IMG/VR virus record: IMGVR_UViG_3300021540_000004
Coordinates: 1-64,000 of that record
Reading direction: 5' to 3' (one strand)
DNA: 64,000 nt
Origin: a virus
Lineage: Duplodnaviria; Caudoviricetes
The notes under the pieces were generated by a model. That model was not told where the DNA came from and did no database searches. It saw only the letters and a program-made list of their open reading frames with translations. Positions 26,994 through 44,616 of the stretch are shown here, one piece after another (position 1 is the stretch's first letter; each line of letters begins with the position of its first letter). The position numbers were made by a program, and so were the translations under genes.

Positions 26994-27104
26994 ATTCTTT
27001 GTATGTCTTCTTCTGTTGGGATTGGATTGTATTTTTCGTAGTCTCCGTTTTCTTGCATTATTTGGAAGTCTTTTTCCATTAGTTTTATGTTTTTCATCAT
27101 TTTT

Positions 27105-27190
27105 TTCTCACCTTTAATTTTTTTTCTTTTGGGTTCTTATAATATATATTATATTTTACTAGTATATAAAAGTTTCCATTTCAAAAACTA
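27105..27190 (-). promoter_or_regulatory. Conserved BRE/TATA promoter plus CCCAAAAGAA leader
   Basis: Minus strand ATGGAAACTTTTATATACTAGTAAAATATAATATATATTA; leader motif at 27124-27133. Confidence 0.75.
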
Positions 27191-28081
27191 TAAAAAAAGA
27201 CCAACAAAACACACACCCATTAATCAACTAACTCAAAACTAACACCCCACTTACACAACTCCAAATTCATAACCTCACAAATAAACTCATTCAACTCCCC
27301 AGGATCAACATCACAATCCTCATCAGAAATAACCCGCAAAGTCAACTCATAAGAAACCATCAAAAATCAATCCCCTGATTCTTAATATCCCTAAAAATCA
27401 AATCCAACAACTTAATACCATACTCATACTCAGGAGTAGGATTACGATTATTCATAGACACCAACATCTCACGATAATCCTCCAATATAACACCTATCGC
27501 ACCAACATCACCCATCATAAATCACCTTTTCCAAACATTCATGGAACTGAGATACATTATGGAAGTTAAGTTGAAAAAATAATAAACACATATCATTTTC
27601 AGCAACATAATGCTCACAACCTTTATGGACATTTTTATTTGGTTTAAAATACTTACAATCATATCTCAAACCAACATAACACTCCCATATCCTATCACAA
27701 ACAACAGTATCATTCCTTACCTTTTCTTTGAAATAATAACAATCATAACATGATTCAGCCATAGTGTACCCCCTCTTCTGTAAATTATTCTCTATGAAAT
27801 TTTTAATTATTCTAAATCCTCTCTAACTTCATTAATCCAATAATCAATATCCTGCATATCATCATAAAGTTCCAAATGCCCCACTAACATAGATACAATT
27901 GCACATTGAACATTTAATTCCTGGACAACAGCAAATGCATCCTCTAAAGGATATAATATAATCTCACTATCAAAACCAGTCTTCAACTTATCCAAATTAT
28001 CAATTAACGTTAAACAATCATTCTCCACATCCTCAACAGCCTCAAAACGAACATCCATAATCCCACACACACCAAAAAAAA

Positions 28082-28402
28082 CTATTCTATTTTAACAACT
28101 TTACAAACATCTGTTCGACTATCAGGCACTTCTAATGTTACCTTTTGCCCCACTTTAATTTTACAATAATCTTGTATACTAACCGGATATTCTTGAATAA
28201 TATAATGTTCTCCAGCAGGATTTCTTTCACTAATAACATATACAACATTAACCCAATTATCATAATCAAAAGGGCTATTCCCATTTCCCATACCAATTAT
28301 ATGCTTACTATCTACATACATTGTTACCTGGGTTGCATTTACTGTTCCGATACACAAAAGTATCGCAATTACTGCTAGTATTAATATTAATTGTTTATTC
28401 AT
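28082..28402 (-). CDS. Secreted small protein (paralog of 16902-17180)
   Basis: Signal peptide; PVS..DY.KIKVGQKVT. Confidence 0.6.
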   Translation of the reverse strand: MNKQLILILAVIAILLCIGTVNATQVTMYVDSKHIIGMGNGNSPFDYDNWVNVVYVISERNPAGEHYIIQEYPVSIQDYCKIKVGQKVTLEVPDSRTDVCKVVKIE

Positions 28403-29553
28403 TTTTCATCATCCTTACTTCAAAATCCTGACAAGGACACTTACCACATTCCACAAACAACCGACCTTTATCAGTTTTATATTTAGGTAACAAACAATAC
28501 CCTACAAAACTAGACGCCTTACTACTATTAAATTTACAATCTTTATAATCCATTATTCCCCATCCAATAACTTAAAAATAACCTTATCATCATCAACCTT
28601 AGTCAAATCATCACATAAAACATTCTGACAAAACTTCCTCTTACTAGATATGAAAAAATAAGTATACACTGGATCTTTCATATCAATACTAAAAGTCTTA
28701 GTCTTACTAATACACTTCAAACCATGATTATCACAAACACCCCTTAAAACCTCAGGCATAATCTCACAAAAACTCATAACCCTTACAATCTCATTAAGAG
28801 AATCCAACGTTACATAACAAAAACTTGAATTATCCTTTAAACCTTTATTCAAATCATCACGTAAATTTTTATAATAATCATCATTAACTTGTCTTTCATT
28901 AAGGCAGGCTTTTTCTAATTCATCAAGACCATCAATATACTTATCAAAAATATTATCATTCATACTCTTTCACCTTCTAATCTTTTCCTGGCTACAGTAA
29001 ACGGTTCTTTCTCACCAGGAATATTACGTCTAACTATATGATTAACTCTCCTAATATTAGATGATACAAAATTACCATCCAAAATCATACCCCTGAAACT
29101 ATTCATAAACATAAAATACTCCAATTTCGTTTTATCAGGTAAATCTGAATCCCATAACCTACGAGAAACATATACTGTATGTATATCATAATCCCTTAAC
29201 GTTAATTTTTCATCTTTCAAATCTTCTAACGATACAAAAACCCAGTTATTCATTCTACAAACACCTATTATCCTATTTTTTTTAATCTATTCTACTTATT
29301 TTTATGAAAATATAAGCTAACAGAAACATCAATGTCCTCCTTTTCTTCTTTAAAACTACTAATAAGTCCAACAATATCATCCAACTTAAAATTATCATCC
29401 AATGGAAACAATTTATTTCCAAATAACCCATTGGATAACTCTACTTCATAATAAAATAATGTCCAAGGTAAAATCTTCACAATATTTAAAATTCCTTCAT
29501 TCGCATTTTTTAAAATTACAGTTGAATCAGTTTCTACAATATCCATAAAACCA

Positions 29554-31155
29554 TTACACTCCTATTTTTTCTTTTATTAATTGTAACTGCTCTTTATTCC
29601 AGTTACATTTTTGTAGTTCTTTTACTATTTTTTCTGCTGTTTTTTTGTTTTTATATGAGCCGTACCATACACTTTTTCCTCCAACTTGTTTTTTAATATA
29701 GTATCTTGTTTTGTTGGGTGTTCGTTTATCTTCATAGATTAATTTACTTGTATCTCCTCTTGTTTTACATGATTTGTAACCTATACTTTCACGTATATTG
29801 TCTAGTTGTTTTTTATCCCAGTCCACTTTTTTTAAGTGGTTAGCTACTTTTAAAGCGATTTTTTTAGTGGAATAACTACCATAAAAAACTTTATCTTTTA
29901 CTATTATCCATTTACTGTATTTTCGGGATTTTGCATAATAAACATAATTGGATTTACTTTTCACTGGTTTTAAATCAGGAGTGACGATATTATCATATGT
30001 TAAAACAGTTGATATTTCTTCACCACTATAGGCTAATTCTATAAAATCATTCCATGTAATATTAAATTTGTCTAAAGCATCATTTATGAGATATTTAGTA
30101 GTGTCTAATGTTTCTGCCATTGCAGGAATTGAATTAATATTAAATTCTCTTATGAAAAAAGCAATGTCTTCTATAAAATTAGTATAATGTTCTTCGTTTA
30201 AATCATGATTAATTTTAACTCTGCGTGTGGGATATGCTGGTAATTCCATATTTTTGTATGGATTTTCACATGGTTCTGCTAGTTCAACTACTTTATTAAT
30301 ATCCCAATCATATTTTTCATATAAGTCTCTTTCATGTAATGTGTCTTCGGGGTTTTTGAAACTAAAATAGATTTCATTGTCTTTAGATAGAAATTTTCTA
30401 CAAATCCATTTGTTCGTTTCTTTATCATAGTAGATATGTCTCCAGAAATGTAGGGTGTTGATGTAATATTCTGGGTATTCTTTTTTTATTTTGGGTAATT
30501 TTGTTTTGTCCCAGTTGTTTTCGTATAGTTTTAGTCTTATGTATTCAGCGAATTCCTGGGTGGTGTATGATCCATAATATTTTTTGTTGTACCATACTTG
30601 GTAGCTGTTGGGTCCTTTTTCTGTGACATATCCTTTACCATATGTTGATTGTTGGCGGTTTTTTCTTGGTTTTAGTTTTTCAGGTATTGGATATTTTAAA
30701 CCATTCTTAATATAAGGATTGTCTGTTATTAAATCATACTCTGATGCTTTACCTATAATATAATCATTGCTTCTTGCAATATCTCTGTAGTATAATGCTT
30801 CTTCAATACTCTTGCAAGTACCCATATATCGTGGAAGACCTTTTTTATTATTCTTCGGTCGATTAACTTCATAGTAATAATCACCATTACACTTAATATA
30901 CTTATAATACTGATTAATCTTATCTTCATCAGTAAGTATAATATTTTTATCCCAATCAGATTCAATTAACTTATCACGAACAGCAACAGCCTCATCAAAA
31001 CTATCATAAGTACCAAAATAATACTGTTTACCATTGATAACTTTACGAACCTTAAACTTACCAGTACTGGTTTTATCAATATTTTTACCAAACCATTTCT
31101 GATAATCCGATTTACTATCACTTTTATTATCTATTAAACCATCAGTTACTATCAT
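29554..31155 (-). CDS. Multi-AP2-like-repeat DNA-binding protein with central HTH (533 aa)
   Basis: About six repeats of Y(F/Y)GxYxxxxxAxxxxxxLxxxxW(D/N); central SIPAMAETLDTTKYLI HTH-like segment; colinear with 38028-39590. Confidence 0.7.
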   Translation of the reverse strand: MIVTDGLIDNKSDSKSDYQKWFGKNIDKTSTGKFKVRKVINGKQYYFGTYDSFDEAVAVRDKLIESDWDKNIILTDEDKINQYYKYIKCNGDYYYEVNRPKNNKKGLPRYMGTCKSIEEALYYRDIARSNDYIIGKASEYDLITDNPYIKNGLKYPIPEKLKPRKNRQQSTYGKGYVTEKGPNSYQVWYNKKYYGSYTTQEFAEYIRLKLYENNWDKTKLPKIKKEYPEYYINTLHFWRHIYYDKETNKWICRKFLSKDNEIYFSFKNPEDTLHERDLYEKYDWDINKVVELAEPCENPYKNMELPAYPTRRVKINHDLNEEHYTNFIEDIAFFIREFNINSIPAMAETLDTTKYLINDALDKFNITWNDFIELAYSGEEISTVLTYDNIVTPDLKPVKSKSNYVYYAKSRKYSKWIIVKDKVFYGSYSTKKIALKVANHLKKVDWDKKQLDNIRESIGYKSCKTRGDTSKLIYEDKRTPNKTRYYIKKQVGGKSVWYGSYKNKKTAEKIVKELQKCNWNKEQLQLIKEKIGV

Positions 31156-31188
31156 ACGAAAAAAACAACCTATAAATTTCCTTTTTGT

Positions 31189-32247
31189 TTAGTTTACATA
31201 ACGTTTATGATTATACTGTATTTCATCATCATCCTCAACAACATATAACTTTGTAGTTTCCAAATTAGTATGACCTGCCATTATACGTATCTGCTCTAAA
31301 GGAACATCTTTACTTAATAATGAACAGCAAAAACTTCTACGGAACCTGTGTGGGTGTACATTAACAACACCTGCTCTTTTTCCCACTTGTTTTAAACTAT
31401 ACTCAATACCACCAGTACCTAAACGTGTATTTGGTTTGTTATAACTAACAAGTAATGCAGCATTAGTATCAGTCCTTGAATCAAGATAATTTTTAATAGC
31501 TACTTTACTGGAATCATTAAAATAACATTTACGCTCTTTACTACCTTTACCCATAACATAAAAAGTATTATTATTAAAATCCAAATCATCACGATTAATA
31601 TTAGATAACTCCGATACCCTTACACCACTACTTAATAATAATTCAAATATTACTTTTTCACGTAAAGTTTCACAATTATTACGGAGCAATGCAAGTTCCT
31701 CAGAACTGAATGGTTGTTTAACCTGTTTCAGTTGTTTAATACCCTCAATTTTCTTCATAGGATTACGGAATATTAAACCTTCAACATTACAGAAATTATA
31801 AAAACTAGATAAATACCTACGATAATTATCAACAGTACGAGGTGTTGTTCCTTTCTCTAAAAGATGATTAAACCATTCACGAATATCATCACTAGTCATT
31901 TCAGCCAAACCTTTATCATGAAACTTTAATAAATAGGATATAACATCATTATATACGGTTAATGTTGTTTCAGCTAAACCCAATAAACGTTTAGTTTTAT
32001 TAAACTGCTCTATCAATGTATTATTCATCTTTTCATAATCTATATCCACACTTACTTCAGAAGAAACAGAATAATTCTTAATAACAATATTTAATAATTT
32101 ATTCAATTCAGATAATTGTCTTGCATTCAAAAATTCCTGCATATCACGAATAACATTATTAATAAGAACATTACATTCATTATTATCTGATGTAGTGTAG
32201 AAATCATTTAAAATAGCATTTCCAACATTCAAATTTATAGAATTCAT
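31189..32247 (-). CDS. Tyrosine recombinase (XerA/integrase-like) #1
   Basis: SGVRVSEL, GKGSKER, HPHRFRR, AGH...TTKLY: complete R-K-H-R-H-Y set. Confidence 0.93.
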   Translation of the reverse strand: MNSINLNVGNAILNDFYTTSDNNECNVLINNVIRDMQEFLNARQLSELNKLLNIVIKNYSVSSEVSVDIDYEKMNNTLIEQFNKTKRLLGLAETTLTVYNDVISYLLKFHDKGLAEMTSDDIREWFNHLLEKGTTPRTVDNYRRYLSSFYNFCNVEGLIFRNPMKKIEGIKQLKQVKQPFSSEELALLRNNCETLREKVIFELLLSSGVRVSELSNINRDDLDFNNNTFYVMGKGSKERKCYFNDSSKVAIKNYLDSRTDTNAALLVSYNKPNTRLGTGGIEYSLKQVGKRAGVVNVHPHRFRRSFCCSLLSKDVPLEQIRIMAGHTNLETTKLYVVEDDDEIQYNHKRYVN

Positions 32248-32284
32248 ATCCCAAAATCACCATCCATTAATCATATCTTTTTTT

Positions 32285-33379
32285 TTAGAAGTTAGTGTAT
32301 TTTTTATGAGTCATTGCAATTGTCTCATCATCCATATCAAGATACCTCAATGTAGTCTCCAAGCTCACATGACCCATTAACTTTTGAACTTGATCTATAG
32401 GCATACCTTTCTTGATCATTGTCGTGCAAAAAGTCCTCCTGAATTTGTGTGGATGTATATCTATATCCAAATATTCACCTATCCGTCTAAAAACCTTATC
32501 AACACTTGTAATTGATAAAGGACTACCAATATTTATGTTTGATTCTTGAACAAACATATAAATACTATCATCCTCCCTTAATCGGAGGTATTGGAGCATG
32601 TAATTTTTTGCTTTTTCACTAAAATAGATTACTCTTTCTTTATCACCTTTACCATGGACTAAACCTTTACATTCATCAAAATTAATATTATCCGTTTTCA
32701 AACTAACTAGTTCACCAACACGAATACCACTACTTAATAATAATTCAAACATTGCTTTTGTCCGCATTGTCCGAATGCTTAATTCATTCTTATTCTTAAG
32801 ATAAATATTCCTATTAATGAACCATCGCATTTTCTCTATTTCCTCATAAGTAAATGCTTTTTTAATCTTTTTAGGTTCTTTAACTGGAGGAATACGTAAC
32901 ATTGGATTTATTAAAATCTTCTCTTCATCAGTTAAAAATCTAAAAAAGGAAGATAAATTCCTACGCATATTATTAATAGTTGCTTTACTACAACCATTCT
33001 GTTCTTGATAAAAAATAAGAAAATCTTTTAAATCTTCACTGGTTAATTCCAGAAACGATTTAATAGACCATTTCTTCAATGCATTTAAAGAATACTTATA
33101 AGCACCTATAGTTTTTTTAGATAAACCTTTAATTTTTTTAACTTTAACAAACTCTTTAATTAAAATTTCATTTGTTTTATCATAATCCAAATCATGATTT
33201 TTAGGATTATCTGCAAATGTTAAATGGTTTGTATTATAGTATAATGATTTATTTAATTCAGATAATTGTTTATTATCCAGTAAATGTTCCATTCCACCTA
33301 ATACATCTTCAATGAATTGTTTTTTATATTCACCAGTTATTGCTTGAAGTTCATTAATCATATTATACATCAACTCCAC
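32285..33379 (-). CDS. Tyrosine recombinase #2
   Basis: SGIRVGEL, GKGDKER, HPHKFRR, MGH...TTLRY. Confidence 0.93.
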   Translation of the reverse strand: MELMYNMINELQAITGEYKKQFIEDVLGGMEHLLDNKQLSELNKSLYYNTNHLTFADNPKNHDLDYDKTNEILIKEFVKVKKIKGLSKKTIGAYKYSLNALKKWSIKSFLELTSEDLKDFLIFYQEQNGCSKATINNMRRNLSSFFRFLTDEEKILINPMLRIPPVKEPKKIKKAFTYEEIEKMRWFINRNIYLKNKNELSIRTMRTKAMFELLLSSGIRVGELVSLKTDNINFDECKGLVHGKGDKERVIYFSEKAKNYMLQYLRLREDDSIYMFVQESNINIGSPLSITSVDKVFRRIGEYLDIDIHPHKFRRTFCTTMIKKGMPIDQVQKLMGHVSLETTLRYLDMDDETIAMTHKKYTNF

Positions 33380-34916
33380 TAACGTCTAATTCACCATTCA
33401 TCAATAAAGGTAACATTTTATCTAATAACTCTTTTAAGTATCTATTTTCTTCATTATTCCACATTAAAACATTTTGTATCCATAAACCCATCATCATACT
33501 AAACATTTCAGATAATGATTCTTCCTTACTATTTTGTTCAAATTTAACCTCATTCTTCTTCTTAGATAACTGTAAATACTTTAAAGGAGTATAATCTAAA
33601 TCTTCAAAAGTCAAATCTTCCATCTTATCAGGGTTTGTTTCTAATAATTGTTTTAAATTATTAAATATGGCATTAGCTTGTTTATTATCTACATTAACTG
33701 TTTGAATATCAAATTCTTTAGCTAATGTTTGATTAATAGTTAATTTAACTAAACCTCTGCGAGTATCGCATCTTTTAATATCATTAATAATGTCCTTGAA
33801 ACTTCTATGTTTCTTTAAACTCTTTTTAAAATCAAATTTTATATACTTGGATGGGGATAAATCATAATCCTTTTCTCCCACATCTTTAACATTAACTGTT
33901 ATGCAGTATTCCTCTTGGTCTTTTTGGTTTTTTATCGCTTCTGAGATTTCCACTAAATCTTCATCAGTATAATACAAGAAAGTTTTTGTATATACTCTTG
34001 TTTTCATATGGTCTTCGCCTTTCTGCTTTCTTTCAAACAAACCCGTAGGTTGTGATTTAATAAATGTGATTTTACCTTTTCGATTATCTGGTTTAGATTT
34101 TCTAACTTTCAATATAGTGGTTGGAATATCTGTATTAGTAAACATTTTACCAGGAACATTTATAACAACATCTAATAAATCATTATCAACTAGGAATTTA
34201 CGATATATTTTTTCATCTGTTGAAGATAAAACACCATTAGGTAAAATGAATACTCCTACTCCATCATCTGTTAATTGGTCTAATGCTTTAAACACGAAAG
34301 CATAGTTTAAATTCTTATCAAAATTAAAATCATTGGTAATTACTGTTTTTTCTAAGTGTAAATTAAATGGCGGATTAGATATTACTGTATCTACTTTAAC
34401 ATCAGCATTTGGCAATACATTTACTAATAATCCATCTTGCACAGTATATTCTTTAACTCTTTTATCAAACAATACATCTTCTGTGTACACTTTACAATTC
34501 ACTTTATTATAACATAATTTAAATAGTAAAAATGGTAGAACAGTTGTATCTAATTCTTTTAATATGTAACTGCATTGCTCATGAGATTTAAACTTTTCTA
34601 ATGTTAAACTACCCATTCCACAACACATATCATAGATTATGTTTTCATTTTCATGGTTAGATAACATTGCAACCAGTTTACTTAAACTCTTTGGAGTGTA
34701 ATCCTGACTTAAACCTTCACGATCACTTAACCAGAATTCATATAAACCCTGAAGATAATCAAAGTCATCATCTTTTGTAAGTTTATCATATGCTTTAATA
34801 AGTTTACTTAATTCTTTTTTATTACCAATCGTTTTTATTAAAGTATTAGGTAATTCTGAAACATCTTGAATGTTTAATGTTTTTAATAGTTTATTTGTGA
34901 ATTTTTTTAATTCCAT
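33363..34916 (-). CDS. N6-adenine DNA methyltransferase (HsdM-like)
   Basis: QDYTP, YDMCCGMGSL (motif I), SNPPF (motif IV), FILPNGVL. Confidence 0.88.
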   Translation of the reverse strand: MELKKFTNKLLKTLNIQDVSELPNTLIKTIGNKKELSKLIKAYDKLTKDDDFDYLQGLYEFWLSDREGLSQDYTPKSLSKLVAMLSNHENENIIYDMCCGMGSLTLEKFKSHEQCSYILKELDTTVLPFLLFKLCYNKVNCKVYTEDVLFDKRVKEYTVQDGLLVNVLPNADVKVDTVISNPPFNLHLEKTVITNDFNFDKNLNYAFVFKALDQLTDDGVGVFILPNGVLSSTDEKIYRKFLVDNDLLDVVINVPGKMFTNTDIPTTILKVRKSKPDNRKGKITFIKSQPTGLFERKQKGEDHMKTRVYTKTFLYYTDEDLVEISEAIKNQKDQEEYCITVNVKDVGEKDYDLSPSKYIKFDFKKSLKKHRSFKDIINDIKRCDTRRGLVKLTINQTLAKEFDIQTVNVDNKQANAIFNNLKQLLETNPDKMEDLTFEDLDYTPLKYLQLSKKKNEVKFEQNSKEESLSEMFSMMMGLWIQNVLMWNNEENRYLKELLDKMLPLLMNGELDVSGVDV

Positions 34917-34934
34917 TAAATTGTTCCTCTCTTT

Positions 34935-35414
34935 TTATGTTATGATTGATGCAACCATTTCTTTAGCTTTATCTTCAGTTAAGAAACGACCATAATAATC
35001 ACCATTAATGTAAACAACATAAACTTGTTCATCTTCTAGCCAGTAGTAATATTTTGGCTGGAAATTTAATGTATTAATGGTTTTTTGATGTAATTTACTT
35101 TTATCCCATCCAACTTTTTTTAACTTACGAACAATATTTTTAGCAGTGCTTTCTGATTCAACAGAACCATAATAAACACCACTTTTACGGATATAATATC
35201 GTCCATTACGTTCAAAATAAAACTTATTCTGAACTTTATTTTTAAAGAATAATTCACTCGCTTCACCTGTTAAAGATGAATCTTTCCAATTAACTTTATC
35301 CAATTCATTTACTAGGAATTTCGCTTCTTCTTCAGTATCTACTGTTGTATAATACTTATTTTTTTTACGAATAACATACTTGCCTGATGCTAGTTTAAAA
35401 TAACATTTAACCAT
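34935..35414 (-). CDS. Small protein of three AP2-like repeats
   Basis: YYTTVDTEEEA...VNW; YYGSVESESTA...VGW; YYGRFLTEDKA. Confidence 0.65.
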   Translation of the reverse strand: MVKCYFKLASGKYVIRKKNKYYTTVDTEEEAKFLVNELDKVNWKDSSLTGEASELFFKNKVQNKFYFERNGRYYIRKSGVYYGSVESESTAKNIVRKLKKVGWDKSKLHQKTINTLNFQPKYYYWLEDEQVYVVYINGDYYGRFLTEDKAKEMVASIIT

Positions 35415-35430
35415 AAAGAAACACTTCCAT

Positions 35431-36507
35431 TTAGTCTGTTAGTTTTTTATGAGTATGTTTTAATTCAGATTCATCAATAATAGTGTATAACTGTGTTGTA
35501 CTAATTCCTTCATGTCCAAGGTATTCTTTTATCTGTTCAATAGGAACTCCTTTTTTCAAAAGATTACTTGCCATCGTACGTCTAAAACGGTGAGGATGAG
35601 TATTTTCCACTCCACAACTTCTTCCAACGTTACGGACTAATCTTTCAACACCATTCGTCCCTAATTGGTTATGTGGTTTTTTAGAAGATACGAATAAATA
35701 AGGATTATTATCTGTTCTTTCATCCAAATACTGTTCCAATAAGAATTTAGTTGTTTCATTAAAATAACAGACACGTTCCTTATTACCTTTACCTAATACA
35801 ATACAAGTTTTATTACTTATATTAACATCATCAAGTTTTAATCCAACTAATTCACCTACACGCATACCACTACTTAACAGTAATTCAAATATGGCCTGGT
35901 CTCTTAAACTTTTTTTATTAAAAGCAAAACGTAACCTGACAATCTCAGCATTACTAAAAGGTTTCTTAACCCTAACAGGTTCTTTAATCTTATGAATACC
36001 TACTAATGGATTATTAAAAATCAAACCATGAATAGTTAAATATTTAAAAAATGATCTTAAATTACGAACATAATTATTAATCGTAACAACACTAATACCC
36101 TCCTCCTGTTTACACCTCATGAAATATTTAATATCCTCCGCGGTAATCTCCTGTAAACCTTTAGGAACATACTTTAAAAAAGAATCAACCGTACTCCCAT
36201 ACAATTGTAATGTCTTTTCAGATAAACCCTCAACACGTTTACCATCTAAAACAAAATTGATTAACTTCTCATTAGTAACACTAACATCCTCATTGAAATC
36301 AACATATTTAACACTGAAACTATAATCAGCAGCAATACGTTTCAAGTTATTATTTAATTCTACAAATTGTCTGCTTTCAAGTAAATCTTCCATGTCATGT
36401 AAAACATTATTAATTAGTGATTGTGCTGCACCATTATCAAAATCATTATAGATTTCTTTACTTACAGCACCACCAAAACCTTCTAATCCAGTATTTAAAC
36501 CCAACAT
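35431..36507 (-). CDS. Tyrosine recombinase #3
   Basis: SGMRVGEL, GKGNKER, HPHRFRR, LGH...TTQLY. Confidence 0.93.
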   Translation of the reverse strand: MLGLNTGLEGFGGAVSKEIYNDFDNGAAQSLINNVLHDMEDLLESRQFVELNNNLKRIAADYSFSVKYVDFNEDVSVTNEKLINFVLDGKRVEGLSEKTLQLYGSTVDSFLKYVPKGLQEITAEDIKYFMRCKQEEGISVVTINNYVRNLRSFFKYLTIHGLIFNNPLVGIHKIKEPVRVKKPFSNAEIVRLRFAFNKKSLRDQAIFELLLSSGMRVGELVGLKLDDVNISNKTCIVLGKGNKERVCYFNETTKFLLEQYLDERTDNNPYLFVSSKKPHNQLGTNGVERLVRNVGRSCGVENTHPHRFRRTMASNLLKKGVPIEQIKEYLGHEGISTTQLYTIIDESELKHTHKKLTD

Positions 36508-36513
36508 AATTTT

Positions 36514-37581
36514 TTAGAACTCCATATATTTTTCATGATTTATTTTTAATTCATCCTGATCAACAATTGCATAAATCAAAGTAGTATCAGCATTAGAATG
36601 ACCTAAAAATTTACTAACTTGCTCTAATGGTGTGCCTTTACGCAAAGCATTAGTCGCCATCGTCCTTCTAAATTTATGCGGGTGTGCATGAACACCAGAA
36701 CTCTCACCATACTCCCTTATCAACCTTTCAACACCCGTAACCTGCAACCTATTATGAGGCTTTTTAGAAGAAACAAATAAAGCCACATTATTATCCTCAC
36801 GAGTACTAAGATAATTCTGCAAAGCAACATTAGTCTGACTATTCATATAACAAGTACGCTGCTTATTTCCTTTACCTGTAACAATAAAACTATTATTATT
36901 AAAATCAATACTAGTACGATTTAAATTAACCAACTCACCAATACGAATACCACTACTCAACAATAATTCAAAAATAGCTAAATCACGTTCTTTATTATGA
37001 TTAATCTTATTCTTCTTATGACTATTCTTCTTATCAAAAATAATAGCATTACGCAACAAAGTAATTTCCTTAGCAGTAAAAGGCTCCTTAACAGACTTCT
37101 TAGATTTAATAGCTGGAAGTTTACGCATAGGACTATCAATAATATACTCCGATTCAATAAGATAATTATAAAAACTACTTAAAACACGTCGCACATTATC
37201 CACAGTACTATTACTACAACCATTCAAATCTTTATAAAACTTAAAATAATCCTTAATATCATTAGTAGTTAAATCAGTTAAAGGTTTAACCGCCCAATCA
37301 CTAAAATTCTTCAAAGTACTACGATAATAACTAATCGTCCTTTTACTACAACCCTGTAATTTCTTCTCAGAAGTAAAATTACGGATTAACTCCTCATTAG
37401 TAACATCATAATCCAAATCCACCACAGGCTTATCCTTAATATTCAAATCATCAGTATGCCTATTCAATGATTTATTCAACTCAGTTAATTGCCTATTATC
37501 CAACAAACCATTCATACTTTCTAATACATCATCAATGAATCGTTTCTTATACTCTGCAAAAACAACATCATACTCTTCCAT
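36514..37581 (-). CDS. Tyrosine recombinase #4
   Basis: SGIRIGEL, GKGNKQR, HPHKFRR, LGH...TTLIY. Confidence 0.93.
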   Translation of the reverse strand: MEEYDVVFAEYKKRFIDDVLESMNGLLDNRQLTELNKSLNRHTDDLNIKDKPVVDLDYDVTNEELIRNFTSEKKLQGCSKRTISYYRSTLKNFSDWAVKPLTDLTTNDIKDYFKFYKDLNGCSNSTVDNVRRVLSSFYNYLIESEYIIDSPMRKLPAIKSKKSVKEPFTAKEITLLRNAIIFDKKNSHKKNKINHNKERDLAIFELLLSSGIRIGELVNLNRTSIDFNNNSFIVTGKGNKQRTCYMNSQTNVALQNYLSTREDNNVALFVSSKKPHNRLQVTGVERLIREYGESSGVHAHPHKFRRTMATNALRKGTPLEQVSKFLGHSNADTTLIYAIVDQDELKINHEKYMEF

Positions 37582-37600
37582 ACGAAAAAAACACCCCCTA

Positions 37601-37858
37601 TTAAATTAATTTAGTTTGAATATTGTCAAATGTATCAATAACCCATTCTCCTTTAAAGTCTTTGTCTTCAGGTTCATAGCATATTAAATCATAGCCTAAT
37701 TCATTTAATTTATCCAGTAGTAATTGCTGTTTTAACTCATATTCATTGAGTAGGTCTACTGGGAATTTTCCTATTTTTTTGTCTTCTTTATCGTCTTTTA
37801 TATGGACTGTATCGTGTGTTTTTCCATATACTAAACGATACCTGTTTTCTTCATACAT
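37601..37858 (-). CDS. Small LN-family protein with C-terminal QTKLI
   Basis: MYEENRY...VDLLNEY resembles 20015-20320; ends DNIQTKLI. Confidence 0.6.
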   Translation of the reverse strand: MYEENRYRLVYGKTHDTVHIKDDKEDKKIGKFPVDLLNEYELKQQLLLDKLNELGYDLICYEPEDKDFKGEWVIDTFDNIQTKLI

Positions 37859-38027
37859 TATTTATCCTCCATTTTCTCTTTTTTTAAAGTATTCACAACA
37901 GTCTCCAAGTCTGTGAACATAATAGTTATGATGATAGCAGAATCCTTGATATTCACGTGGTCTTAACCATTGGTAATGTTTACATTCAAAATGTCTACAA
38001 TTCATTCTTATAACACCTCATTTTATA

Positions 38028-39590
38028 TTAGGGGTATATTTTATCTGCTTCCTCTTTGATACCAGGGAATTTTTCCTCGTTCCAGTTTACATCAATTAAT
38101 TGGTCTCTTATGTATTCTGCTTTTTCTTTATTTTGATAGGTTCCGAAGTTATTCATGCGTTTATCTTTTCCTTTATGTCTTACGGAATAGCTAATTACTT
38201 TTCCTTTATATTTATTTTCGTAAACCCATCTTTTGCTGCCGACAATACTTTGGAAACCTATTAATTCATGTATTTTTTTAAGTCTTTTTTTATCCCAATC
38301 ACATTCTTTTAATTTTTTAACAACTTTTTTAGCTGTTTTTTTATTTGGGTAACTACCATAGTATACTCCTTTACGTGCAATTATGTATGGGCTGGGTCTG
38401 CCATCTGTTCTGAAATGAATATAATTTCCATCACTATAATGTACACTTAAATCCGGTGTGAAAACACGTTCTATTTCTAATAATTCTAATGGGTCTTCAC
38501 CAGACCAGCATATGTTTTTGAAATCCTTCCAGCTAATATTATATCTTTTAAGGTAATTTCTAATTGATTGTTCATTAATACCCATTAATTCAGATAGTTC
38601 TTTTTGAGTGTTAACTCCCTCCAGTATTAATTCTTTCATTCTTGTGAGTTCATCTTCATAAGTTTTAAGTGGAACATTATGTAAAATAGTTCTTTCTGGA
38701 TATGGAGGTAATTCCATATTGTAATATGGGTTATTATCATCGTTAGCACAATAGACAATTGTTTCTATATCAAAATCATATTTAACATATAAATCACGTT
38801 CCCATAACGCATCTTCTAAATTACTAAAAACTAATGTTGTTATTTTGCCTTCATTGTTGGTTGGTGTTAATACGAATGCCCATTTACCATCATGTGATCC
38901 ATTCTTTAAATGTGGTCTGACATAACGATAGAATCCTACTAGCCAGGTATACCATTTAGGATAATCGTTTAATATTTCAGGTATTTTATTTTTATCCCAG
39001 TTACATTCTTGTAGTCTTTTTTTCACGTAATAAGCTTGTTCATATGTTCTGCATGCACAATAATACTTACTGCTGTATTTTACATGGTATGATTGTGGTC
39101 CTTTTTTAGTTATTGTTCCTTCAGCGTAATTGGAATCTTTTTCTTTTTTAACTAATCTTTCAGGTACTGGATAATCTAAACCATCTTCTAAATAAGGGTT
39201 ATCTGTAATTAAATCATATAATTTAATATTTAATTTAACATCCCAATTATTATGTTTAACAATGTCTCTCCATAATAAAGCTTCTTCTAGTGTGTTGCAT
39301 CTTCCGAAATATGTGTTTTTCCCGTTTATTCTTTTGATTATAATATATTGGGAATTTTTAACTAATGTAATGTGTTTATAGTATTCTTTTTCGTAGTCAA
39401 CTTCTAATGTTTTTATCCAATCATGTTCTATTAACCAGTCTCTTTTGTTGACTGCATCTTGGAAATTATCATATTGTCCGAAATATTCTCGTTTACCATT
39501 TATATTTTTGAAAATACGATATTTTCCATCATATTTGTTTATGTATTTACCATACTGTTTTTCATAACTATTTTTACTTCCAATGCTCAT
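38028..39590 (-). CDS. Multi-AP2-like-repeat DNA-binding protein with central HTH (paralog of 29554-31155)
   Basis: Six repeats; shared YDLITDNPY...GL.YP.PE.L, KKGP.SY.V.Y, ERDLY.KYD and NPY.NMELP.YP.R blocks; HTH TQKELSELMGINEQSIRNYL. Confidence 0.7.
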   Translation of the reverse strand: MSIGSKNSYEKQYGKYINKYDGKYRIFKNINGKREYFGQYDNFQDAVNKRDWLIEHDWIKTLEVDYEKEYYKHITLVKNSQYIIIKRINGKNTYFGRCNTLEEALLWRDIVKHNNWDVKLNIKLYDLITDNPYLEDGLDYPVPERLVKKEKDSNYAEGTITKKGPQSYHVKYSSKYYCACRTYEQAYYVKKRLQECNWDKNKIPEILNDYPKWYTWLVGFYRYVRPHLKNGSHDGKWAFVLTPTNNEGKITTLVFSNLEDALWERDLYVKYDFDIETIVYCANDDNNPYYNMELPPYPERTILHNVPLKTYEDELTRMKELILEGVNTQKELSELMGINEQSIRNYLKRYNISWKDFKNICWSGEDPLELLEIERVFTPDLSVHYSDGNYIHFRTDGRPSPYIIARKGVYYGSYPNKKTAKKVVKKLKECDWDKKRLKKIHELIGFQSIVGSKRWVYENKYKGKVISYSVRHKGKDKRMNNFGTYQNKEKAEYIRDQLIDVNWNEEKFPGIKEEADKIYP

Positions 39591-39608
39591 ACGAAAAAAC
39601 ACTTCCTT

Positions 39609-40160
39609 TTATATTAGTTTTGTTTGTCCTGTTGCGTTTATATTGTTGAATACTTCTAAATCTAATTCTAATGATTCATCTAATGAAACTGTATCAACAT
39701 CTAACACAATATCCTCTGAATAAATATTATTATAATTATTATCCATTGTTTTTTCTTTTTCTAAACGATAATACGATGAGTTTATGATTTCTTTTTTTAG
39801 GTAGTATGTTTCTTCTGGTGTTGTATATCTCATTCCACGACATGGTGTGTTCAAAGCATAAGGATGATGTAATTTTATTGCATTATTGATACTGTATATG
39901 CTCATTAAATCATCATCTTCCAGGTTATTACATTTTACTGGTCCTAAGATATAATGGTCTTCACTAGTTAAGTTACGGTATAATACTATTTGGAAGTTGT
40001 TCTCTACTCCGATATGTGTTACACGGTCGTTTTTATCAACTACTGCTAATGCTACATAGTAACCGTAGCTCATGCTTAGTTTACGTATGTATCTCATATT
40101 TTTTTGTGGTTTGAATAATAATATTCGTTCAAAACCCGTGTTTAAATTATAATCAGTCAT
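39609..40160 (-). CDS. Hypothetical protein with C-terminal GQTKLI
   Basis: 183-aa ORF with acidic tail then QTKLI*. Confidence 0.6.
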   Translation of the reverse strand: MTDYNLNTGFERILLFKPQKNMRYIRKLSMSYGYYVALAVVDKNDRVTHIGVENNFQIVLYRNLTSEDHYILGPVKCNNLEDDDLMSIYSINNAIKLHHPYALNTPCRGMRYTTPEETYYLKKEIINSSYYRLEKEKTMDNNYNNIYSEDIVLDVDTVSLDESLELDLEVFNNINATGQTKLI

Positions 40161-40741
40161 ACTATTTCACCATTCAATCTTAGTGTATTAACATCAAATA
40201 TGTCTTCACCATAACCTTTTAGATTATATTTACTATGTATTATTTCGTTATCATGGAATAATTTAAAATAAGAACCGGATTTCATGTTTTCTGTACTATA
40301 GTATGTCCATGTTATATTTAGTTCTGGATGCATTTGGAATAGTTTTAATATTACTGGTTCCGGTTGATACCATGCTGTATCAAATACTATTATTAATGGG
40401 GTGGATACTCCAATATTTTCCTCTAATATTTTTTCATGGTCAAATAATTGTAATCCACAGGAGTTCCATTTTGTGTTCCAGAAATCTTTTCTCCATTCAT
40501 ACCAGTTGAACCAATCATTTTCACTGTCTGGTGGGTGTAATGATGCTTTATTATTTAATGCATTACTATGATAGTTTAGATTATATTTTTTAGGACAGTT
40601 TTTTTCTGTTTCTGGTTCTGGTATTATTGTATTAAAATCAAAAATGTTATCCTGCACATGTTTTTCTAAAAAGTTTATTATTTCAGTATTATCTCTTTTC
40701 TCTGAGTATATTTCTATTATATTTTTAACATAATTTGGCAT
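40157..40741 (-). CDS. YubB/DUF1281 ferredoxin-like family protein
   Basis: MPNY..N, FDFN.IIP.P, WYEWR...WNTKWN, FDTAW..P.P. Confidence 0.75.
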   Translation of the reverse strand: MPNYVKNIIEIYSEKRDNTEIINFLEKHVQDNIFDFNTIIPEPETEKNCPKKYNLNYHSNALNNKASLHPPDSENDWFNWYEWRKDFWNTKWNSCGLQLFDHEKILEENIGVSTPLIIVFDTAWYQPEPVILKLFQMHPELNITWTYYSTENMKSGSYFKLFHDNEIIHSKYNLKGYGEDIFDVNTLRLNGEIV

Positions 40742-40769
40742 TTTATCATTAACCCTCCCCTAGTTTTTT

Positions 40770-41186
40770 TTATGGGAATAACTCCATTGCTTTTAACTGG
40801 ATATTTTTTAGGCATTTACGATTCCAGTTAACTTTTTTTAGTTCGTATACTACATATTGTGCTTCTTCTTCGGAGTTGTATGTTCCGAAGTGTTTTTGTT
40901 TTCTACTTTTGGTTAATGGTGAGTAAACAACCCAGTAACCTCCTTTTTTGTTGAAATGATAATATTTTGGTGCATTATCTGTTTCTTGTTTTTTTGTTTG
41001 TTTTTCGGGTTTTCTTGGTGTTATTAATCCATCATCCACTGCATGTTTGTAGAATGTGCTGCATTTATTCAAGCTGATTTGTAGTTTTTCAGCTATTTTT
41101 CGGATAGTCATTCCTTCTCGATAAAGGTCGATGTACTCATTGTATTTGTCTTCCACTATTTTAAATTCAAGCATATTTAACTTCAC
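40770..41186 (-). CDS. HTH plus AP2-like DNA-binding protein
   Basis: GMTIRKIAEKLQIS HTH; HFGTYNSEEEA...LKKVNWN. Confidence 0.7.
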   Translation of the reverse strand: MKLNMLEFKIVEDKYNEYIDLYREGMTIRKIAEKLQISLNKCSTFYKHAVDDGLITPRKPEKQTKKQETDNAPKYYHFNKKGGYWVVYSPLTKSRKQKHFGTYNSEEEAQYVVYELKKVNWNRKCLKNIQLKAMELFP

Positions 41187-41198
41187 CCACTATTTTTT

Positions 41199-41957
41199 TT
41201 AGATTAGTGTTGTTTGTCCATTAGTGTTTTTAATAATATTTTCCTTAATGGATTCATCAACTTTATTTTCATTAGTGTCATTTAATGATGGATTGTTTTG
41301 TTTTACTCCGATGAAGTTATGTGCTTCATGTATTGAATTAATCTCCTCTATATGTGGTAAGGGAATTCCATGAAGTAAATACCGGTTAACTCTCCAACCT
41401 TTATAGAAAGTTTCCTCTAATGTATTCATATGTAAAATACTGCCCCGTACACCATGAATATAGAAATTTAGAACAGACATTTTACAGCTTGTTTCATCTA
41501 AATCTTGACCAATACAATATAGTTGGCCTTTACTATTACAATGTGATGCTAAAAGAAATCGTCCACTTCCGCAACAAGGATCATTAGCAAAACAATTATA
41601 ATATTCTTCAGGTTTTTTATTTATTACCATCTCACCCATTAATTCGGTTATGTGTTGAGGTGTGTAGTATTGTTGTAGGGTTTCCTGTTTTCCTTTTGAT
41701 TGTACATTATCCTCATATAAGTAACCTATTAAGTCGTAGTATGGTTTATCTTGTAATTCTTTGTTCATTTCGTTTATCCATTCGTTGAACATTTCAAAAT
41801 AAGTTTCTTCATTACCATAGAAGCTCTTAGGCGAATATTGGCTTGATGTTTGCATTAAATTTATATCAATGCAGTAATCTAGCCAGTTGTTCCAGATTAT
41901 GCTTCTATCATTGGTTCTTGAGAGTTCATCGAATAGTTCTTCAAATTTAGAACTCAT
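41199..41957 (-). CDS. Short N6-methyltransferase-family SAM-binding protein, C-terminal GQTTLI
   Basis: QYYTP, DPCCGSGRFLL, GQDLD; no NPP(Y/F) motif visible. Confidence 0.75.
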   Translation of the reverse strand: MSSKFEELFDELSRTNDRSIIWNNWLDYCIDINLMQTSSQYSPKSFYGNEETYFEMFNEWINEMNKELQDKPYYDLIGYLYEDNVQSKGKQETLQQYYTPQHITELMGEMVINKKPEEYYNCFANDPCCGSGRFLLASHCNSKGQLYCIGQDLDETSCKMSVLNFYIHGVRGSILHMNTLEETFYKGWRVNRYLLHGIPLPHIEEINSIHEAHNFIGVKQNNPSLNDTNENKVDESIKENIIKNTNGQTTLI

Positions 41958-41959
41958 AT

Positions 41960-42060
41960 TTTCTCACTTTTTCTCATTTTTTCTTTTGGGATTTTTTAGG
42001 AGTAAAAAATTGTACTCCCTTATATAATATTATGATATACTAATATATAAATATTTCCAT
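41960..42060 (-). promoter_or_regulatory. Conserved promoter with hairpin and CCCAAAAGAA leader driving the recombinase/MTase region
   Basis: ATGGAAATATTTATATA box; GGAGTA/TACTCC inverted repeat 41999-42018; leader motif 41981-41990. Confidence 0.7.
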
Positions 42061-42282
42061 CAAATTGGTGGTGAAAAAAACACTAACTCGACAAACGCTT
42101 AACAATCTTACGACTACCCAACCTAATCAAATCATTCAACTCAGCAATCTGATTAACATCAGGATCATCACTCAACACAACACTAATAGTACAATCACAC
42201 CAACCTAAACTAATCTTCTCCTCAACAATATTATCCATACAAAAAACACTCCTTACCTTTAATATTAAATAAAATAAATTTT

Positions 42283-43008
42283 TTAATTCAAACGCTCAAC
42301 AACATTCCAACGAAGCTGAAAACCCGTACCCTTCAAATACCTACGAACCTCAGACCTCGTATACTCCAAACTATAACCAAAACTATCAGCCAATTCCTCA
42401 ACATTCTTACCCGCTAAAAAATCAACACCACCACACTCATTAATCAACTTAAAAATAGGAGTCTCATGCTCCTTATACAACAACTTCTTCAAACTCAAAC
42501 CATTACGACGAAACACCTCATTCAAATAAGGATGTGGAACACCTAAACACTTAATAACCTCACTAAGACTATAACCATCACCTAATAATCGTTCAACATC
42601 ATCAATAATAACCTTATCATTACTAATAACACGATTACTACTACTAGTCTTATTATAACCAAGGTTCTTCCAAATAATATTATTCCTTTTAAAATACTCA
42701 GTTAAAGGAACACTACTCTTATAACCTAAATCCTCACCAATATCCTTTAAAGTATATCCCTGGTTTTTCATACGGATAATATAAGATAATCCTCCTTTAT
42801 CATAAATCAGCTGATTAATATTACGAACCTCTTCATTACATGGTAATTCAGACCAGGTTAAATCATATTTCTTAAGATAATTATAGATTATTTTAGGATT
42901 ACTATAACCTAATTCTTCAGCAGTTTCACGTTGAGTTTTACCCTCAGCACGAGATTGTTTAATAAACTCCAATCCCCCTGCATTATCAATTACATCACTA
43001 GAATTCAT
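42283..43008 (-). CDS. Multi-HTH repeat DNA-binding protein
   Basis: Repeated GG...G.T...(T/I)(A/G)E.LGY units. Confidence 0.65.
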   Translation of the reverse strand: MNSSDVIDNAGGLEFIKQSRAEGKTQRETAEELGYSNPKIIYNYLKKYDLTWSELPCNEEVRNINQLIYDKGGLSYIIRMKNQGYTLKDIGEDLGYKSSVPLTEYFKRNNIIWKNLGYNKTSSSNRVISNDKVIIDDVERLLGDGYSLSEVIKCLGVPHPYLNEVFRRNGLSLKKLLYKEHETPIFKLINECGGVDFLAGKNVEELADSFGYSLEYTRSEVRRYLKGTGFQLRWNVVERLN

Positions 43009-43356
43009 AAATACTACACCTCATCTCTTATGTTGGTTTCGTAGAATTTACATCTTGGATCCATTATCCTACCATCACCACATTTACCTTTCAAATGATT
43101 ATACCTGTTACAAGTATAACAATGTGGAGGTACTGTAATATCCTTATTAATCCATACATCATCAACATTTATATGTTCTTCGCCTTGCCATACCGGTTCC
43201 AGACTTAAATGAACTTTCTTCAATTCCGGTATATTACCATGTGCTCTTTCTTCAGTGTATCTTATTTTAAATATTCTACTATAATATGTTCCATCAGGTT
43301 CTATTATATCTACCAATGCATCTTCTGGTAGTTTACTTAATACTTCTTGTAATTTT

Positions 43357-43839
43357 TTATTTTTCACCTTGCAACTCCTCCCTTAAATATTCTGCATAAG
43401 TTTTACATTTCTCCATATCTTCATCAAGATTCTTACTATCGCATCTCACAGAATATTTAATAATATTACCTTTTAAAAATCCAATATATTCTTCTTGACT
43501 TAATAATCCCATCTTAAACGCTTCAATGGGACTTAAACCATTTTTATTATAATATTTTGGATTGTAAATATCATCAATTGTTTTAACTTTATTACCTTCA
43601 ACATTAATATCAATATTTTCTGAATTTAATATGTTAAAGTATGCTTCTTTTAAACATTCTTTTAAGGAGTTTTTATCAAATGTTACTTTATTATCTTCAG
43701 CATAAATTGTTGTTGATAAGTTTTCACTTAATACTTTAGCGATTTCTGATATTATAGCTAATTTAGTATTTCCTTCAAATGTTGAAGATTTAATAGTTAA
43801 TTTTCTTTGAGATGCTTCCCTATCAATTTGTAACGACAT
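43357..43839 (-). CDS. DUF3310 (T7 gp1.7-like nucleotide kinase family) domain protein
   Basis: NPKYY...IEAF...EEY.GFLKGNIIKY..R...K..Y. Confidence 0.7.
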   Translation of the reverse strand: MSLQIDREASQRKLTIKSSTFEGNTKLAIISEIAKVLSENLSTTIYAEDNKVTFDKNSLKECLKEAYFNILNSENIDINVEGNKVKTIDDIYNPKYYNKNGLSPIEAFKMGLLSQEEYIGFLKGNIIKYSVRCDSKNLDEDMEKCKTYAEYLREELQGEK

Positions 43840-43878
43840 AATTAACCTCCTCCTTAAAAAAAAATATTTTATCTTTTA

Positions 43879-44616
43879 TCACTCTGTTTCTTTATATAAT
43901 TTCCAGGCATCAGGAATATTTATCTCATAGACATGTGCACTTGTAGCATGATAATCTATACCTTTAAAATATACTTGTTTATTTAATTTATAACTATTAT
44001 ATTCCTCCATTAATTTTAAACCAAAATACGTTAAGAATAGCATATTACCATACCATGCACCATAAATATCATTGCTCCTGAACAGACAATGTAATATTAA
44101 TTCATTCTCATGTCTTATTGTTGCTTGCAAAAATTGTAAGCAAGGTATATCTTCAACACTATTATCTAAGAATGGATTGTATATTGTTGCAACAGCACGA
44201 TTAGTGTTACTATTATTATTTAACCTGTTAATCATAACATTAAATTGATTTATAACTGTTACTGGTTCAGTATCTAATGCTTTTTGTTTGAATATACGGT
44301 TAGGATAACTGTAAACAAAACTTTTATCACCAGTTAAATTTATCTGATCAGTATTGTCTACTGCTGTTGCATATTCCATTAATGCTTCACCTTTCAAACC
44401 ATAATTATTCAAGTCAAATCTTCCTTCTTTTAAAGATTTACGGTAGTATTCTAAACCAGTCATGTCATCTGGTTTTTCATACACTTCAGGGAAGGGATTA
44501 TTGATGAATATATGGTTTCCTAGGCTTTCTTGTATTTTACTATCATCTTTATTTGTTAGTTCACCATATACTAGTATGTTTTTTAGTATATGGTGTAATG
44601 CATTTATTATATGCAA
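43879..44616 (-). CDS. thyA: Thymidylate synthase family protein
   Basis: YSYPNR, NRAVA, DIPCLQ (catalytic Cys), FRSNDI..AW..N, SAHVY. Confidence 0.85.
   Translation of the reverse strand: MHIINALHHILKNILVYGELTNKDDSKIQESLGNHIFINNPFPEVYEKPDDMTGLEYYRKSLKEGRFDLNNYGLKGEALMEYATAVDNTDQINLTGDKSFVYSYPNRIFKQKALDTEPVTVINQFNVMINRLNNNSNTNRAVATIYNPFLDNSVEDIPCLQFLQATIRHENELILHCLFRSNDIYGAWYGNMLFLTYFGLKLMEEYNSYKLNKQVYFKGIDYHATSAHVYEINIPDAWKLYKETE

Follow-up and report, generated by a model that had tools for sequence, protein, structure and literature searches.

Why would a virus keep four tyrosine recombinases in a single operon, interspersed with proteins built of AP2-like repeats? The question is raised by positions 29554-41957 of a 64,000-nucleotide stretch (the window) that corresponds to bases 1-64000 of IMG/VR virus record IMGVR_UViG_3300021540_000004, a linear sequence of 120,184 bp with a CheckV completeness of 89%. 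The sequence has a G+C content of ~30%, and its minus strand holds nearly all of the genes. The virus is a tailed virus of Methanobacteriales with a genome of ~120 kb, and positions 29554-41957 form one co-directional operon on the minus strand. The host was assigned to the Methanobacteriales from sequence comparisons: Int394, an integrase encoded elsewhere in the window, shares 45% identity with its counterpart in Methanobrevibacter smithii virus MSTV1, and the nearest genome contig with an equivalent module belongs to a Methanobrevibacter metagenome-assembled genome (MAG).

The initial annotation treated all thirteen genes of the operon as one candidate system. Their order, strand and sizes were as it had described, but thirteen genes proved too broad a definition. 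The core is a smaller unit, present twice in the operon, that consists of a recombinase of one subtype (B), a recombinase of a second subtype (A) and then one or more proteins made of 2-6 AP2-like repeats. This B-A-AP2 unit is real and new, and it seems to be undescribed, as the initial annotation had suspected: the arrangement was not found in the literature searched, including PMC8371274, PMC8651126, PMC9800368 and PMC11375127. Likewise, no 100-177 kb Methanobrevibacter viruses with the unit were present among the phage-collection matches or in the literature searched. In transcription order, pair 1 is composed of Int355 (B-type, 36514-37581) and Int358 (A-type, 35431-36507), followed by a 159-aa protein with three AP2-like repeats (34935-35414). 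Pair 2 is composed of Int364 (B-type, 32285-33379) and Int352 (A-type, 31189-32247), directly followed by a 533-aa protein with six AP2-like repeats and a central stretch resembling a helix-turn-helix (HTH) (29554-31155).

Relatives were drawn from IMG/VR, a large protein collection and species genomes; searches for related loci succeeded with alignments as queries and returned nothing with single proteins. Thirty-nine recombinases were placed in a maximum-likelihood tree, which had two clades. Every leading gene of a pair, Int355 and Int364 among them, belonged to clade B (Shimodaira-Hasegawa-like approximate likelihood ratio test, SH-aLRT, 89), and every trailing gene, Int358 and Int352 among them, to clade A (SH-aLRT 97). 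The gene order within pairs was always B then A. Congruent pair types were recognized inside both clades: type 1 contains Int355/Int358 and orthologs 72-87% identical to them, type 2 contains Int364/Int352 and their orthologs (those of Int364 in relatives L055, L014 and L066; the Methanobrevibacter MAG ortholog of Int352 is 82% identical), and type 3 is found in G001, L056 and L058. As the same pair types branch alike in clades A and B, the tree indicates that the pair was duplicated as a unit and that its B and A members then co-diverged. The phylogeny thus bears out the two subtypes proposed at the outset (352/358 aa and 364/355 aa), the duplication with order preserved and the resemblance to XerC/XerD-style paired paralogs.

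The link between the pairs and the AP2-like proteins, also proposed initially, is equally consistent. An AP2-array gene comes directly after each of the 15 B-A pairs, which are spread over 9 contigs, whereas no AP2 array was found in the loci of 12 single relatives or of one unrelated double. The spacers are short: 1-43 nt from B to A, and 1-45 nt from A to the AP2 gene (176 nt in one case). Pair 1 is always accompanied by its own three-repeat partner of 158-159 aa (the orthologs directly after pair 1 in L055 and L058 are 72-82% identical), and pair 4 likewise has three array proteins to itself; the array proteins that follow pairs 2 and 3 are mixed in part. The combination of pair types varies from genome to genome (1+2, 1+3, 3+4, 2+4, a single recombinase with pair 2, and none in virus G207). 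The unit recurs among the relatives, and the ratio of non-synonymous to synonymous substitution rates (dN/dS) is 0.08-0.21 across all module components tested, which corresponds to purifying rather than relaxed selection; for the recombinases, it is 0.11 (Int355), 0.12 (Int358), 0.14 (Int364) and 0.11 (Int352).

Two near-identical relatives indicate how pairs are exchanged. From pair 1 across the 158-aa gene and ~400 nt into the third recombinase gene, L055 and L056 match at 98% identity; beyond that point the second pair is a different one in each. Because this boundary lies ~400 nt inside a recombinase gene, the alignment identifies the exchange as homologous recombination inside the gene and not as insertion of a cassette. 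Judging from these sequences, homologous recombination moves entire pairs from one near-identical virus to another. The viruses themselves do not look like proviruses. Assembled independently from different samples, they differ little in length (120,184/120,416; 100,264/100,769/101,835; 172,775-177,560), and of 201 Methanobacteriaceae genomes only 2 had B-A pairs, each time on a separate contig that resembles a virus; both points argue for free genomes. The unit serves as a marker for a family of 100-177 kb Methanobrevibacter viruses, which infect the main methanogens of the human and ruminant gut.

What kind of recombinases are these? All four match PF00589 (E-values of 8e-32, 2e-36, 2e-37 and 9e-32 for Int355, Int358, Int364 and Int352, respectively) and have SAM-like core-binding domains. 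Their pairwise identities are 35-44%, and the two subtypes are not visible from raw identity. The catalytic R-K-H-R-H-Y set and the N-terminal motif noted initially were confirmed in the alignment. R213, K240, H302, R305, H328 and Y337 (Int355 numbering) are invariant in all four proteins, and the catalytic residues are also invariant in 13 B and 12 A sequences; the invariant motif columns in the four are I16, V19, M23, L27, Q31, E34, L35, N36 and L39. The best curated family is archaeal XerA (NF040815), with scores of 205-233 bits against a cut-off of 220: Int358 (233) and Int355 (224.5) are above it, and Int352 (207.4) and Int364 (205.3) slightly below. The best relatives of solved structure are XerA of P. 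abyssi (4a8e, E-value 4e-45), XerA of T. acidophilum (5hxy) and XerD of E. coli. Matches to the solved XerA/XerD proteins begin only from profile position 66, leaving an N-terminal extension of 65 aa that has no counterpart in 4a8e or 5hxy. In the Int355 model, the first ~45 residues are predicted to form a helical hairpin that precedes the XerA-like body. In an Atlas feature search, the extension scored no better than ~0.8, which is the chance level. Taken together, the profiles and the model identify the four recombinases as XerA-derived proteins with a helical N-terminal extension. The XerA role attached to NF040815, that of a single chromosomal gene without an extra N-terminal domain whose product resolves chromosome dimers at dif, does not apply to them, as the viral genes come in pairs and are extended. 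Of 201 host-family genomes, 179 have a host XerA, again as a single gene, and the host XerA-like matches start at about residue 90 of the query.

The partner proteins are less easily placed. A hidden Markov model (HMM) built from the repeats detected 6 copies in the 533-aa protein, 5 in a 524-aa protein (38028-39602), 3 in the 159-aa protein and 1 in a 138-aa protein (40770-41186). Pfam AP2 (PF00847) did not match any protein of the window, even at an E-value of 10, and matched only one of 33 relatives (E-value 4e-4). A sequence search of the PDB with the repeat profile gave no match. The AP2 affinity is instead supported by phrog_99, the AP2 part of phage HNH endonucleases, which matches the 533-aa protein with an E-value of 1e-7, and by the predicted structure of the 159-aa protein (predicted local distance difference test, pLDDT, 90.6). 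This model contains three beta-beta-beta-alpha units, as in the AP2 fold, in line with the three repeats counted both initially and by the HMM. Its top PDB match is the tandem-AP2 factor WRINKLED1 on DNA (Foldseek probability 0.77; VIA Z 5.5 over 94 aa), with single AP2 domains ranking below it (2gcc, root-mean-square deviation 1.2 over 38 aa); such scores are modest, as expected of 40-residue domains. The repeat family is rare, with 41 representatives among 1.84 billion proteins, and is common to the module proteins and to the HNH_3 endonucleases of relatives.

The 524-aa and 533-aa proteins are collinear paralogs (39% identical). Both had been described as six AP2 repeats with an HTH: the six repeats hold for the 533-aa protein, but the HMM finds five in the 524-aa protein, arranged around a central weak HTH, and HTH support among the ~530-aa proteins is weak and limited to HTH_28 in the 524-aa protein (E-value 7e-4). 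In relatives, these ~530-aa AP2+HTH proteins are placed elsewhere or missing; homologs of the 524-aa protein are not beside a pair, and a homolog of the 533-aa protein is two genes after the pair in L164. Between the two pairs lies the gene for a 517-aa HsdM-like protein (33363-34916), which shares its last 17 nt with the start of Int364. By sequence, it is a complete N6-adenine methylase with the NPPF motif (PF02384, E-value 1e-39; phrog_6380, E-value 2e-75) that belongs to a phage orphan-methylase family. It was not found at the corresponding position in any relative compared, and this synteny identifies it as an insertion specific to the source genome. By the same comparison, neither the methylase nor the ~530-aa AP2+HTH proteins belong to the core; they are accessories that vary between genomes.

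Which DNA, then, do the pairs act on? The count of four recombinases holds for the module and not for the genome, in which six tyrosine-recombinase genes of three kinds were found; no serine recombinase was found. Int394 (60669-61853, minus strand) is a lysogeny integrase of the MSTV1/psiM100 type, 33% identical to the psiM2 and psiM100 integrases. An 875-nt non-coding stretch lies downstream of it, and ERF, GIY-YIG/NUMOD3 and AAA_15 genes are nearby. The sixth gene (genome positions 65086-66133, within L005:1083-2136, which corresponds to 65083-66136) belongs to the Int394 family and is split by an apparent frameshift near 65,316 into 278 and 81 codons. Intact orthologs of 345-349 aa are found near a shufflon in G207 and L060, and also in L164. 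In this 345-aa subfamily, a lysine replaces the first catalytic arginine, and HxxR and the tyrosine are kept.

The frameshifted gene lies near a ten-cassette fiber shufflon that lies outside the window (genome positions 70447-75403; L005:6447-11403) and is the sole inverted-repeat system in the genome. It comprises a 312-aa fiber gene with nine additional cassettes for the C-terminus, of which six are direct and three are inverted; every cassette starts at GTGAAAGA. This 8-nt core is invariant at 31/31 sites in three viruses, although the fibers are only ~45% identical; GTG accounts for just 10.7% of the valine codons in the source genome. In relatives, the cassettes are arranged differently: nine are inverted in one state, and ten are direct and one inverted in another. 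Natural chimeras were also found, in which near-identical fiber N-termini are fused to different cassettes, joined exactly between VFVK and D, and from these chimeras we conclude that the shufflon works and is active in nature. The divergent Int394-type recombinase is syntenic with the lysin and the shufflon in G207, L060 and G000, a position that ties the 345-aa type to the fiber cassettes.

Additional shufflon-like loci were seen in relatives. A second kind of fiber shufflon, in which the cassettes are convergent and the site differs (TTACTACGGAAAA...), is present at G001:57298-60837 (L041/L042), and contig G002 starts inside the homologous fiber gene right at the TTACTACGGAAAA site, as if the assembly had broken at a shufflon. 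A search for conserved non-coding DNA common to the pair-2 viruses gave nothing useful beyond this match between G002 and G001. A possible fiber with one inverted cassette in G006:C52, in the same MAG as a pair-bearing contig, was too weak to count. At the ends of the G207 contig (L174:2-928 and L178:6689-7267), a weak tyrosine-recombinase match is split across both ends; either the genome is circular, or the attachment site interrupts the integrase gene to which it belongs.

Our working proposal is that the pairs act, in the manner of Xer recombinases, on the virus's own genome. We arrived at it by elimination and from the homology to XerA: Int394 better fits lysogeny, and the fiber-linked paralog of Int394 better fits the shufflon, which leaves a job in genome topology. 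Each B-A pair would form a heteromeric site-specific recombinase similar to XerC/XerD, and the AP2-array protein would contact it and bind accessory or arm-type DNA beside the core site, setting the geometry and direction of recombination. Acting at one site per pair, so far undetected, the enzymes would cyclize the incoming DNA and/or resolve multimers of the replicon. We regard genome cyclization or multimer resolution, with AP2 arrays at accessory sites, as the most likely of the jobs considered, yet as tentative and less probable than not, and several points weigh against it. A search for dif-like 11-6/8-11 palindromes returned four matches, none convincing, and no target site was found; nor does any non-coding DNA adjoin the pairs. 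Cyclization or resolution does not explain why two different pairs are kept per genome, G207 does without any pair, and the host XerA could serve instead. The ancestral job may also have been integration, because the closest bacterial relatives are annotated as prophage integrases and single members of the family lie on host chromosome contigs.

Another possibility, which we consider unlikely, is that the pairs are extra integration and excision modules. Each pair would be a heteromeric integrase that uses a different attachment site or host, while the AP2 arrays would serve in trans as arm-binding or directionality factors. Relatives in Clostridia and Selenomonas genome contigs (27-39% identity, some spanning the N-terminal extension) and in phage records (28-34% identity, annotated as integrase) are consistent with this, as are the ~30 of 201 Methanobacteriaceae genomes that carry a single homolog of 38-46% identity, some on large chromosomal contigs. 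The AP2-like fold is also that of the arm-binding domain of the lambda and Tn916 integrases, and swapping the second pair between near-identical viruses would alter site specificity. However, the genome already has an integrase of the MSTV1 type with a large non-coding flank, Int394, and the pairs have no non-coding DNA beside them for an attP. Moreover, no pair-bearing virus was seen with host DNA flanks, and the assemblies from different samples are of equal length.

Each B-A-AP2 unit might instead be a selfish, site-specific mobile element of the Tn554 kind, with copies accumulating in tandem in an accessory region of the viral genome. The gene pattern is indeed similar, the distribution is patchy with varying pair-type combinations, many selfish genes lie in the region (HNH_3-AP2 and GIY-YIG endonucleases, TnpB) and the HNH_3 endonucleases found in relatives contain the AP2 repeat as well. 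We nevertheless think this rather improbable, as the units are always co-oriented within one operon and separated by few bases, they lack terminal repeats, the pairs are almost never found in host chromosomes, and the only exchange boundary that could be mapped is inside a recombinase gene, pointing to homologous exchange.

A further candidate substrate is the fiber shufflon: the pairs, or at least the conserved pair 1, could be its invertases, with AP2 arrays restricting the reaction to inversion. Cassette shuffling had been among the jobs suggested initially, and a suitable substrate does exist, active in nature, 33 kb from the pairs. Fiber shufflons are present in pair-bearing viruses (G000, the 100,769-bp contig, G001 and probably G002), and the fiber of the pair-less G003 has no cassettes. 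Against this stands G207 (87,267 bp, CheckV completeness of 100%), retrieved by a search with the fiber alignment. It has eight direct and two inverted cassettes with the GTGAAAGA core, but no XerA-like recombinase, no AP2 array and no homolog of the methylase-like MT252 (described below) were found; a 345-aa divergent Int394-family recombinase lies beside its lysin and shufflon. Pair type does not track shufflon type either, as pair 2 occurs with both kinds of site. Because the related G207 has the same shufflon core without pairs or arrays, sequence comparison suggests that the pairs are probably not the shufflon enzyme, and we consider an invertase role quite doubtful; an Rci-like role was rejected on the same grounds.

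Least credible of all is a methylation-gated recombination switch, or a type I restriction-modification (R-M) style shufflon centered on the HsdM-like gene: the methylase gene does separate the two pairs and extends into the start of Int364, but it is missing from that position in every relative and belongs to an orphan family, no HsdS or HsdR is encoded in the module, and no recent DNA repeats or inverted repeats were found inside 27000-44000, so that neither the gating envisaged initially nor rearrangement within the module is upheld, and an hsdS inverton was rejected.

Beyond the job itself, a bolder proposal concerns how heteromeric Xer-derived pairs might be directed. Modular AP2 arrays could supply targeting and directionality in trans, as in a lambda-type intasome split into separate proteins, with the number and order of repeats encoding the pattern of arm sites. 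We think this unlikely. If it held, swaps of pairs and arrays between viruses would re-program where the genome is cut and joined, and the targets would possibly include the fiber shufflon in viruses with a broken fiber-linked recombinase, as in the source genome. Six tyrosine-recombinase genes of three kinds and a ten-cassette shufflon constitute a compact system for assigning integration, inversion and resolution to their enzymes.

The remaining genes of the operon precede pair 1. The first, MT252 (41199-41957), encodes a truncated HsdM-like protein of 252 aa whose match to PF02384 is confined to the first third of the profile (positions 4-118 of 311, E-value 6e-14; phrog_5696, E-value 6e-24); both this short methyltransferase-like gene and the HsdM-like gene had thus been classified correctly. 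In an alignment to the 517-aa methylase, the S-adenosylmethionine-binding motif I (DPCCGSG) is present in MT252 and the NPPF/Y motif IV is absent. With a dN/dS of 0.079, MT252 is a frequent neighbor of the XerA-like recombinase family, single members included, and recurs near both recombinase families; relatives beside recombinases were seen in L014, L015, L021, L162 and G006:C72. It is followed by the 138-aa protein, which has an N-terminal HTH (HTH_7, E-value 2e-5) and one AP2-like repeat (residues 82-122), and by a 194-aa protein of the DUF1281_C (Api92/YubB-like) family (40157-40741; PF18406, E-value 1.3e-5), in agreement with its initial description as YubB-like and conserved in L055-L057. 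A 183-aa protein (39609-40160), without any Pfam or PHROG match, precedes the 524-aa protein, and an 85-aa protein without any family match (37601-37858) follows the latter. The apparent intergenic gap before the 85-aa gene (37859-38027, minus strand) contains a Cys/His-rich open reading frame of ~47 codons (MNCRHFECKHY...).

Three of these unrelated proteins end in the same tag, (G)QT[KT]LI: GQTTLI in MT252, GQTKLI in the 183-aa protein and IQTKLI in the 85-aa protein. Orthologs in L055, L058, G002 and G003 keep it (e.g., GQTTLF, GQTKLI), including those of the 183-aa protein in L055 and L058. This tag could be a clamp-binding peptide.

The leader ahead of the operon (41958-42055, minus strand) contains a CCCAAAAGAA box at 41981-41990. 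This box occurs 17 times in the window, against 6.4 expected, always on the minus (coding) strand and ahead of gene blocks (positions include 41981, 44997, 51424, 55454 and 60215). As the next exact CCCAAAAGAA box downstream of the leader on this strand is only at 27124-27133, the transcription unit probably extends beyond the lower limit of 29554 given initially. A 55-80-nt version of the box is repeated in G006:C72.

The operon, an early one, is flanked by nucleotide-metabolism genes (thymidylate-synthase-like and DUF3310; dCTP deaminase/dUTPase in relatives), with an ERF recombinase gene further upstream within the window. A TnpB/Cas12f-like gene (45848-46996) and a GIY-YIG/NUMOD3 homing endonuclease gene (57933-58832) are also on the minus strand of the window, and HNH_3-AP2 endonucleases lie within the corresponding operon of relatives. 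In L058, genes for HNH_3 endonucleases and a nicotinamide phosphoribosyltransferase lie upstream of pair 1, together with that of a third, weak recombinase. A close relative has, past the downstream end of the module (L055:16557-21071), RAMP, Csf3-like, two PAPS-reductase/DUF3440 and ParB_N genes, which may constitute a defense or DNA-modification island.

How does the B-A-AP2 unit compare with known recombination systems? Among archaeal viruses, phiCh1 and HCTV-5 are precedents for a tyrosine invertase, phiCh1 using a single Int1 for tail-fiber inversion (PMC8651126). The source genome has, like the R64 shufflon (Rci/sfx) and phiCh1, a multi-cassette fiber shufflon with an asymmetric conserved core; however, those systems use one recombinase each, that of phiCh1 being inside the invertible region, whereas the viral pairs are 33 kb away and absent from G207.

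The closest proteins are the XerA recombinases (P. abyssi 4A8E, T. acidophilum 5HXY) and XerC/XerD, with which the viral enzymes share the core-binding and catalytic domains and the full catalytic set and, in the case of XerC/XerD, the organization as two adjacent co-evolving paralogs. Archaeal XerA itself is a single gene in host genomes. The viral pairs differ in their 65-aa N-terminal helical hairpin, in being virus-encoded, with two different pairs per genome, in always being followed by AP2-repeat proteins and in having no dif-like site that we could find.

Tandem tyrosine recombinase genes in fixed order are also known from Tn554 (TnpA, TnpB, TnpC), in which two recombinases and a small third protein move as a discrete unit into a specific site, and from recombinase-in-trio (RIT) elements, which have three tandem recombinases, of subfamilies A, B and C, between inverted repeats. 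The viral unit differs in having pairs and not the trios of RIT, an AP2 array as the third component, no flanking repeats and no sign of transposition. We rejected an assignment to the RIT elements, as pairs of two subtypes are separated by AP2 genes and lack flanking inverted repeats.

Xer recombination at cer uses ArgR and PepA as accessory proteins, and that at psi uses ArcA and PepA. By analogy, a simple Xer-type recombinase of the virus would rely on separate DNA-binding proteins that occupy accessory sequences and thereby set topology and direction; the difference is that these would be dedicated, virus-encoded AP2 arrays from the same operon, for which no accessory sequences were identified.

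In the lambda and Tn916 integrases, the arm-binding domain has an AP2-like fold and acts in cis. The viral unit likewise associates a three-stranded sheet and helix of the AP2 type with a tyrosine recombinase, but it places them in separate proteins of 2-6 repeats, and the N-terminus of the recombinase is helical. An arm-binding domain in cis usually separates complex (lambda-type) tyrosine recombinases from simple (Xer/Cre-type) ones. Two co-evolving simple recombinases working with separate AP2-repeat proteins would represent a third arrangement, and AP2 arrays would here be tied to recombinases for the first time in an archaeal virus.

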